Source: Haliotis rufescens
Lineage: Eukaryota
Length of the DNA stretch: 64,000 bases
Assembly (NCBI RefSeq): GCF_023055435.1
Contig: NW_025964112.1
Span: 53,878,001 to 53,942,000, forward strand
Direction: 5' to 3'
This document shows, one piece after another, positions 41,201-44,200 of the stretch (within the stretch, counting starts at the first letter, position 1; each line of letters opens with the position of its first letter). The notes under the pieces were generated by a model that was not told the origin of the DNA, did not search any database, and saw nothing but the letters and a program-made list of their open reading frames with translations. Both the position numbers and the translations under genes were made by a program.

Positions 41201-44200
41201 ACAGTGTGTTGAGGATGTTATAGTGTGTTGGGGATGTTAGTGTTTAGGATGTTACAGTGTGTTGAGGATGTTACAGTGTGTTTAGGATGTTACAGTGTGT
41301 TGAGGATGTTATAGGTGTTGAGGATGTTAGTGTTTAGGATGTTACAGTGTGTTTAGGATTTTAAAGTGTGTTGAGGATGTTACAGTGTGTTGAGGACTGT
41401 CCATGTCTGTCTGCAGCCACACTGGTGCTGCCCGGTCAGCTGTAGATAATCTCACCAAGTCTCTGGCCATCGAGTGGGCGGCGGACGGTGTGCGAGTCAA
41501 CTCTGTAGCACCTGTGAGTAAAGCTGACATACTCAGTAGTATTGTACCATTAAAACATCAATGAAATAGGGCTACTGTATTCACTATATCACTTCCGTGA
41601 TAGGAAACAGAATCAGCACAATATGGAAGAGACAAATTCTTAAACATATTCATACTTCATGAATATCATTGCTTTTTGTTTGCATGCATGCATAAATGAC
41701 ATACTAATTTGGGACAGTATGTTTCATGTACGAGTTTGGGACGGAATGCATAATGTACCAGTTTGGGACAGTTTGTACCAAGTTCAAGTTTGGGACAGAA
41801 TGTATCATGTACTACTTTGAGACGGAATGCACCATGTACCAGTTTGGTACGGAATGTATCATGTACCAGTTTGGGACAGAATGCACCATGTACCAGTTTG
41901 GGACAGAATGTATCATGTACCAGTTTGGGACAGAATGTATCATGTACCAGTTTGGGACAGTATGTAACATGTACCAGTTTGGGACAGTATGTATCATGTA
42001 CCAGTTTGGGACAGAATGTATCATGTACCAGCTTTGGACAGAATGTATCATGTACCAGTTTGGGACAATATGTATCATGTACCAGCTTGTGACAGTGTGT
42101 ATCATGCGCCAGCTTGTGACAGTGTGTATCATGCGCCAGCTTGTGACAGTGTGTATCATGCACCAGCTTGTGACAGTGTGTATCATGTACCAGCTTTGGA
42201 CAGTGTGTATCATGTACCAGTTTGGGACAGTGTGTATCATGTACCAGCTTGGGACAGTATTGTCTGATGCTTGCAGGGAAGTTCCATCTACTCGGAGACT
42301 GCTGCCGCCAACTATGGAGATTCCAATATCTTTTCCCGCAACATTCCATCGGTGCCAGCTAAACGACTCGGGACAACAGAGGAGGTAAACATACATAGAC
42401 TGTGGAGGCATATGTCAAGTTGTATTATGTTTCAAACTGCAGGCTCTTCACTGTTTTTGAATTGATTGAAGTATAAAGGCTCAAAGCCACAGCTTCTTAG
42501 TCATGTGACCTGGCTGCTTATCCAGTAGGAAAGATTATATCGTGTGAACATCAGAGGTGGTCGGGTAGCATGGGTAGCCTAGTGGTTAAGCGAAGACCCG
42601 GGTTTGATTCCCGACATGGGTACAATGTGTGAAGCCCTTTTCTGGTGTCCCCTACAGTGATACTTTATTCACTCACTCACTCACTCACTCACTGTGTGAG
42701 CATTACTTTAATTATTGTTTTAATATTGATATGCGACACACATCTATGTGGCAACATATCAAGATATCTTTGGGCGGTCGGGTAGCCTAGTGGTTAAAGC
42801 GTTCGCTCGCCATGCCGAAGACCCGGGTTCTATTCCTGACATGGGTACAATGTGTGAAGCCCGCCGTGATATTGCTGGAATATTGCTAAAAGCGGTGTAA
42901 AACAATTCTCACTCACTCAAGATATTTTGCTCTGTTGCAATCAGGGTGGTAAGCATAGGACCTACAAGCTTGGAGCTGTGAGCACTGGTAAAGGACCTCT
43001 ATGCTGTAGGAGATGCGAGAACCAGTATAGGATTTAGGTGCTTGGAGTTGAGAGCACCAGTATAGGACCTAGATGCTAGGATAGTTTGATAATGGCTGGA
43101 GATGATTGCAGATCTCCACAGTCTCCATGTCTCCATCCACAGGTATCTGCGGCTGTGTGTTTCTTGCTTTCTCCAGCCGCATCCTTCATCTCAGGAGAGA
43201 CCCTCAAAGTGGATGCCGGATCAAGCATCTACCCCTCTATGACCTGGACCATACCTGGTGAGTCTGGTCTGTGACCTTGAGTATACCCAATAAGTCCCTC
43301 TCTGATCAGAATACCTGGTGGGTACCATAAATATTACCTGCAGAATACCTGGTTAGTCTGTTCTCTGACCTGGAGAATACCTGGTGAGTCTGTTTTATGA
43401 CCTGCAGAATACCTGGTGAGTCTGTTCTATGACCTGGAGAATACTTGGTGAGTCTGTTCTATGACCTGTAGAATACTTGGTGAGTTCCATATATGACCTG
43501 GACAATACCATCAAAGTACCCTCTATGACCCAAAGAATACATGGTGACTCCCTTCTGTGACCTAGAGAATACCTGGTGAGTGTTCTATGACCTGTGGAAT
43601 ATTTAGTGAGTCCCATATATGACCCGTAGAATACCATCAAGGTCCCCTCTATGACCAAGAGAATACATGGTGAGTCTGTTCTATACCAGGTGAGTCTGTT
43701 CTATACCTGGTGAGTCTGTTCTATACCAAGTGGTACTGTTCTATACCAGGTGAGTCTCTTCCTTTCTTACACTGGAGAACACCTCTAATACCTCCTAATT
43801 TTTCAAGGGGTTCCAATCTTTTTTTCAACATGATCACCATGACAACCTTATTTAAATAACCGTCTTTTACCATTACTTTGCTGTTATGAGGCATATGTGT
43901 ATATGCTTAAGAAGATATTTTACACCGTAATATTTCGCTAAGACATATGACAGACATTGTAAGCATGTAGCATAGCAACTTCGTAAATTAAACTTGAAGT
44001 AGGCACATTGCTCATTATGACACAAAGGATGTGTCAGTCATTTATAGAAAAGCGCCAAAATTTAAGCTCGCTGTTGTCCTCAAAACTGGAAATACATTCA
44101 CTTCGTATATTTCTGGACAAAATGTATGACCACACATCCTTTGAATATTGTAGTGACAGCAACTTTGCATTTTGTAACCTATAATTGTACATATAACTGT

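Follow-up and report, generated by a model that had tools for sequence, protein, structure and literature searches.

Introduction

Tandem repeats that cross an exon-intron boundary have so far been described gene by gene. In the 37-bp VNTR of human F7 intron 7 (IVS7), splicing takes the first of 5-9 identical donors and no other, by an upstream-first mechanism (PMC1557585). In that paper, LMNB2 and PDGF intron 4 likewise use the first site alone, CBS intron 13 and 6-16 intron 2 are cited as using two more proximal pseudo-sites, and the perfect-consensus class CAG/GTGAGT (the slash marks the splice junction) is able to compete in F7 constructs. The amphioxus "mirages" (Adh3 and the globins BflGb6 and BflGb9) occur at both boundaries with splicing apparently undisturbed and were put forward as a route of intron gain and as a more general phenomenon in that group (PMC3087553). 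In human duplicated genes, internal tandem repeats at boundaries were described as creating new introns and alternative transcripts (PMC2812944). A literature search, largely of open-access papers, returned no genome-wide count of boundary arrays and nothing on abalone. Here we describe such an array in the PECR gene of the abalone Haliotis rufescens; the new element is a rate from an unselected sample of conserved coding exons.

Results

The window, the whole stretch of DNA that was analysed, comprises 64,000 nt, and all positions below refer to it unless another contig is named. It contains a PECR gene on the forward strand (32150..44672) with 8 coding exons (32150-32276, 33400-33539, 35094-35259, 36729-36810, 41417-41513, 42277-42384, 43143-43257 and 44587-44672) encoding 306 aa. 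The joined eight-exon model was identical to the annotated H. rufescens PECR-like isoform X1 (P0094), and a close orthologue (P0001) showed full-length similarity to human PECR (1yxm, E 3e-94). Exon 7 (43143..43257, 115 nt) ends with the G of a split codon and was placed by the annotated protein and by one contig joining it on both sides in each of four runs. The coding part of exon 8 (44587..44672) ends in TPKSKL and a stop, with the C-terminal PTS1 signal SKL at 44661-44669. All seven annotated Haliotis PECR proteins end in SKL (six members of the abalone cluster and a separate H. asinina X2), the X2 isoforms differing at the N-terminus through a later start, and SKL is the C-terminal end of 58 of 89 homologues.

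We confirmed a minisatellite that spans the exon 7 donor and carries copies of its splice signal into intron 7 (43236..43761, forward strand), built of 32-bp units with a 126-bp higher-order repeat in mid-array and 20-bp units distally. TRF reported period 32 with 14.2 copies at 43236-43684 (score 318), a 126-bp higher-order period with 2.2 copies, and period 20 with 4.7 copies at 43669-43761. A manual count gave 13 units of 28-34 nt, 4 of 20 nt and one final partial unit, and both counts agree with the original prediction of an exon 7 donor array of about 15 units that shorten distally to about 20 bp. The first unit covers both sides of the boundary, the last ~21-22 nt of exon 7 forming its exonic part. 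The true donor, CTG/GTGAGT (43255..43263), opens the intron at 43258 and was seen as a joint in contigs, where it is printed one base to the left because the G fits either side. It scores 10.5 bits with a weight matrix trained on ~198 donors from the abalone genome.

Downstream of the true donor lie 17 donor-homologous positions, with GT kept in 14 and GTGAGT in 10. By hand alignment, the copies with GT (decoys) are at 43318, 43352, 43384, 43416, 43448, 43480, 43544, 43576, 43606, 43670, 43690, 43710, 43730 and 43750, while GT was lost at 43290, 43512 and 43638. Four decoys equal the true donor in score and two exceed it (12.8 bits, 43690 and 43750); the decoy at 43318 scores 9.7 bits. The two strongest, both CAG/GTGAGT, are carried by the 20-bp units (43670..43761), which represent a 12-nt deletion of the 32-bp unit. 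Units in the middle of the array match the consensus at 30-31 of 32 positions and edge units at 21-26 of 32, and the donor-centred 14-mer recurs exactly at three places within the array. Ordinary minisatellite turnover would account for the homogeneous middle, the diverged edges, the higher-order repeat and the deletion units. In two of three alignments, the units at the GT-less positions resembled exon sequence from further upstream (ATCAAG...CCCTCTATGACC), which may mean that the first duplication was longer or that the exon tail was captured a second time.

The PECR array is a member of the F7 IVS7 and mirage kind, and the testable defining features of that kind were found in it. As in F7, the first unit lies over the exon-intron boundary, the donor is reiterated in the intron and the first donor is used in transcripts. 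In F7, however, the exonic share of the unit is 4 of 37 nt, compared with 22 of 32 nt in PECR, and the PECR array, with 17 copies, is more diverged and includes shortened units as well as a higher-order repeat. For F7, pseudo-sites were shown to function and array length to be polymorphic, whereas the PECR array is known from one sequence. With the mirages it shares the character of an invertebrate tandem boundary duplication (units of 10-160 bp) in which many but not all units carry the splice signal and the edges are left out of homogenisation. The mirages are described as individual cephalochordate cases, whereas the sample below gives a rate in a mollusc, 5.3% of donors and 0.9% of acceptors. 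The repeats in human duplicated genes are likewise ~30-bp minisatellites at boundaries, but those recent paralogues change structure, while the single-copy, conserved PECR shows no such change.

The unit appears to be of local origin. A genome search with its intronic part, using a DNA search that skips common words, picked up, besides this locus, a single unrelated array (71-74% identity), and the lack of dispersed relatives implies a local unit. An origin from a dispersed satellite or mobile element, for which relatives beyond that one array were lacking, was dropped. The other array (L002, 1345-2495, G000:C101, reverse strand) has 30-bp units spanning an acceptor; its exon has a weak Sec5/EXOC2 match (E 7e-4, below the Pfam cut-off), and the 14-nt word it has in common with the PECR unit is probably due to chance. 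The exonic part of the PECR unit encodes SMTWTIP, identical in H. cracherodii and replaced by SMTWEIP in H. rubra and H. asinina. That abalones share these residues suggests that the copying went from exon to intron. At 43246-43248, inside the unit, H. rufescens and H. cracherodii have T, and H. rubra and H. asinina have E; the position also varies among homologues, and an exchange between copies and exon is conceivable there.

The window contains a second donor-spanning array behind exon 1 of an ENPP-like gene (20639..21888, reverse strand; 40-bp unit; donor between 21868 and 21867), whose exon matched Pfam Phosphodiest (E 4e-14). GT was kept in all 30 copies found there, and 28 of them score at least as high as the true donor. 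The two arrays are unrelated, and the PECR array was seeded on the PECR donor with exon sequence copied into the intron, in line with the independent origin originally proposed. By eye, we also noted a long open frame and stretches that are presumably reverse-transcriptase-like and transposase-like at 51580-52930 (reverse strand), 59600-62050 (reverse strand) and 62500-63510 (forward strand).

Exons 6, 7 and 8 lay on one contig, with the joint at the first donor, in all four runs (two studies, two organism labels), and among the joints listed the sole exon 7 junction was the canonical one, from the first donor to exon 8. RNA is on record for these runs as a guess, and the spliced contigs show RNA content. 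Assembled contigs drop rare variants, so this evidence speaks for the main PECR form only. For that form, the use of a downstream donor or the retention of intron 7, both raised by the original prediction, was not borne out. A transcript with an alternative C-terminus was found neither in the contigs of the four runs, to which rare forms are invisible, nor among the seven annotated proteins. In run X1, a 158-nt contig of depth 2.8 (against 20.6 for the mRNA contig) ran unspliced across 43425-43581 through four decoys. It had no link to exon 7, and a similar contig (depth 2.6) covered non-repeat intron at 43860-44093, which makes pre-mRNA or DNA the likelier source. Contig cover was zero at 43258-43339 in the four runs, and runs X2, X4 and X8 had zero depth across 43340-44025; such holes in contigs carry no weight.

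If exon 7 were extended, the intron start (43258..43274) would, on sequence alone, read (G)ESGL followed by TGA at 43272-43274. The predicted read-through product of 283 aa ends in WTIPGESGL-stop, reproducing the tail and the stop ending at 43274 that had been proposed. Its SDR domain had been called apparently complete, but the 1yxm alignment extends 7 residues into exon 8, and the His that opens exon 8 belongs to a motif present in 82 of 89 homologues (Pro next in 73 of those 82). Since the stop lies within the first intronic unit, ahead of every donor copy, all later donors and full retention would give one and the same 283-aa protein. An in-frame micro-exon ladder was ruled out because the stop precedes the first donor copy.

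Read in donor phase, the copies at 43384, 43416 and 43448 give GESVL-stop. The ending S-x-L-stop is inherent to the unit: the donor letters supply the S, and the exon's S-M codons supply L-stop, their frame having shifted because the 32-bp unit length cannot be divided by 3. Use of the copy at 43318 would place the new junction only 43 nt past the stop; with any of the other 13 GT copies the distance would be at least 77 nt. The mammalian nonsense-mediated decay (NMD) rule sets 50-55 nt from stop to junction, and under it the product of a slip to any of the 13 would be a predicted NMD target. The literature search found nothing on an NMD junction rule in molluscs.

The frequency of such arrays was estimated around exons located by five Pfam searches of the genome (kinesin, myosin head, aldehyde dehydrogenase, DEAD, kinase); a sixth, AMP-binding, gave 13 long single-exon matches and was unused. 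From 463 matches listed for the five families and AMP-binding, 253 were kept, chosen before their DNA was seen and excluding matches without introns, duplicated contigs and the bulk of a tandem myosin cluster, for a total of 1,505,573 bases sampled around the kept exons. At least 15 myosin-head genes stand side by side, in both orientations, within ~360 kb at G000:C113:13.93-14.29 Mb. Boundaries were placed by weight matrix near match ends rather than from RNA, giving 226 donors and 224 acceptors above 3 bits, and a position was called positive if two or more near copies of its centred 14-mer lay towards the intron and the exon side had none.

Twelve of 226 donors (5.3%, 95% interval 2.8-9.1%) lay in the first unit of a tandem array, in 12 different blocks and four of the five families (kinase donors 0/32). 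Background was 0.93% of all positions (donors vs background, binomial p 1.9e-6), and 63 of 4,279 strong GT sites outside the listed exons were positive (1.5%). Acceptors lay in a first unit in 2 of 224 cases (0.9%; donors vs acceptors, Fisher p 0.012), and four other settings gave 11-12 of 226 donors and 2 of 224 acceptors. By eye, one acceptor array had been missed (no acceptor was called), one acceptor case was borderline, and one of the 12 donor cases had only a few exon bases in its unit. The enrichment of donor arrays over the genome background is solid, and acceptors do not have this excess. The original prediction of a recurring mechanism, with donor arrays above random placement, is upheld to that extent, but part of the excess reflects a general rise of arrays near exons: positions 25-100 nt into introns from donors without a spanning array were positive in 2.5-3.1% of cases and those near acceptors in 1.5-2.0%, compared with 0.7-1.1% far away. 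The donor excess over this near-exon level (p 0.02-0.09) is marginal, and a donor-specific step is only suggested.

Four other arrays occur in PECR introns, none touching a boundary. Three arrays, at 36960-41396, 41708-42260 and 42955-43081, end 21, 17 and 62 nt before the next acceptor, in line with array density rising near exons and with the scarcity of arrays across acceptors.

We also counted motifs occurring three times at 20-50-nt spacing across the whole genome, against the reversed motif: AGGTAAG 9,856 vs 4,327, GGTGAGT 26,590 vs 22,659, and TTTCAGG 6,311 vs 2,147. Scaled by single-motif counts outside arrays (152/163, 178/214 and 302/146, respectively), the ratios were ~2.4, ~1.4 and ~1.4. 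These counts tally units and not arrays, so they weigh little and separate donors and acceptors poorly.

Starting instead from arrays, we examined the 18 first-listed arrays repeating AGGTAAG or GGTGAGT on contig C1. Four start at a database-confirmed coding exon end: L223 (Pfam TSP1_ADAMTS), L231 (DCAF13), and L233 and L234, at which the annotated proteins depart from the genomic frame exactly at the first donor. By look, L225 and L226 adjoin what we take to be a sacsin-type exon, and L230 adjoins an acceptor on the opposite strand. L232 and L237 are candidate exon-end arrays, and the remaining nine had no convincing exon. Pfam searches of 20 reading frames upstream of the 18 arrays confirmed one, exons that short mostly escaping Pfam, and a PDB search with the L225 exon gave nothing significant.

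Across 14 arrays, retention of the GT columns did not clearly exceed that of the columns next to them (mean difference 0.036, Wilcoxon p 0.07). A p value of 0.013 from the first version of this test was discarded as biased, GT having been compared with more distant flanks. Read-through in 12 of 12 other donor arrays met a stop within 1-21 codons, with unrelated tails. The donor array of a DEAD-box gene (L136, G000:C223:62578786) has GT in only 8 of 36 copies, and most copies read AT.

Discussion

We consider it highly probable that the PECR array is a donor-spanning minisatellite, that splicing of the assembled transcripts uses its first donor and preserves SKL, and that the downstream copies are likely silent, neutral passengers. 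The array would have started with a tandem duplication of ~22 exon and 10 intron bases and, judging from its structure, would have grown into the intron by slippage or unequal exchange. By analogy with human F7 IVS7, splicing likely settles on the first copy owing to its position as the earliest donor beyond the exon. A slip to a later donor would yield the 283-aa product without exon 8, probably cytosolic. More generally, arrays may arise or persist more near exons, where a copy downstream of a donor would be cheap and one upstream of an acceptor would likely be selected against. Against neutrality, the trend in GT retention leans towards keeping (14 arrays, p 0.07).

The alternative that survives best, though we judge it improbable, is that the copies act as leaky poison donors: a small, allele-dependent share of PECR transcripts would decay, tuning expression with no new protein of consequence. 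Every downstream donor would include the premature stop, contigs would under-represent NMD targets, and arrays of this kind are usually polymorphic in length (5-9 copies in F7, PMC1557585; 3 vs 6 in amphioxus, PMC3087553), as the PECR array may be by analogy. The joints listed for the four runs, however, include no junction from a downstream donor, and the closest competitor is gone because the next copy (43290) lost GT.

A functional isoform switch, in which a later donor or retention of intron 7 yields a stable PECR ending in SGL, cytosolic or weakly imported, is very improbable. The raw material is present: 14 GT copies, six at or above the strength of the true donor, with one copy (43318, 9.7 bits) close enough to the stop, at 43 nt, to escape the 50-55-nt rule, and one low-depth intronic contig in run X1. 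CBS and 6-16 do use proximal pseudo-sites, as cited in PMC1557585. The canonical joint nevertheless stood alone among the joints listed in all four runs. Such a protein would lack the conserved residues that open exon 8, and its ending is a by-product of the repeat unit. No SGL C-terminus was present among the 89 homologues or the seven annotated abalone isoforms, and with other copies ending in SVL this test spoke against conservation of, or selection on, an alternative SGL end. EGFP with the native SGL tail of human ARHGAP1 was cytosolic, and the apparent PEX5 affinity was 0.047, compared with 6.4 and 8.0 for two SKL tails (PMC6770196); a plant source lists SGL as a working PTS1 (PMC9542071). 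Given the cytosolic human tail, weak import of an SGL-ended PECR is, by analogy, unlikely in an animal. The proposed replacement of the SKL signal by SGL is thus not supported.

Least probable of all is that the array is an ordinary satellite, intronic or mobile, whose likeness to the exon end is fortuitous or results from invasion of the exon: arrays are dense (316 in the 1.5 Mb sampled) and four more lie in PECR introns off the boundaries, but the DNA search turned up no close relative of the unit at any other genomic locus, its exonic part codes for residues common to other abalones and molluscs, and the donor-centred 14-mer recurs exactly at three places in the array.

Retaining the reading of a minisatellite spliced at its first donor, we tentatively raise a broader idea, to which we give perhaps a minor chance: abalone splice donors may be birthplaces of minisatellites, some mechanism linked to the 5' splice site, such as pausing or R-loop formation, having amplified roughly one coding donor in 20 over and above the near-exon rise. 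If so, and given a typical sample, PECR intron 7 would be one of thousands genome-wide, a genome-scale natural test of first-donor choice, of splicing noise driven by repeats, and of intron gain or sliding.

For PECR itself, the array is likely without consequence and the import signal is kept. For annotation, donor-like motifs adjoining abalone exons are often decoys. If the sampled rate holds genome-wide, there would be thousands of natural donor ladders for the first-donor rule in a mollusc, and they would provide material on copy number versus splicing and on the creation of new introns.
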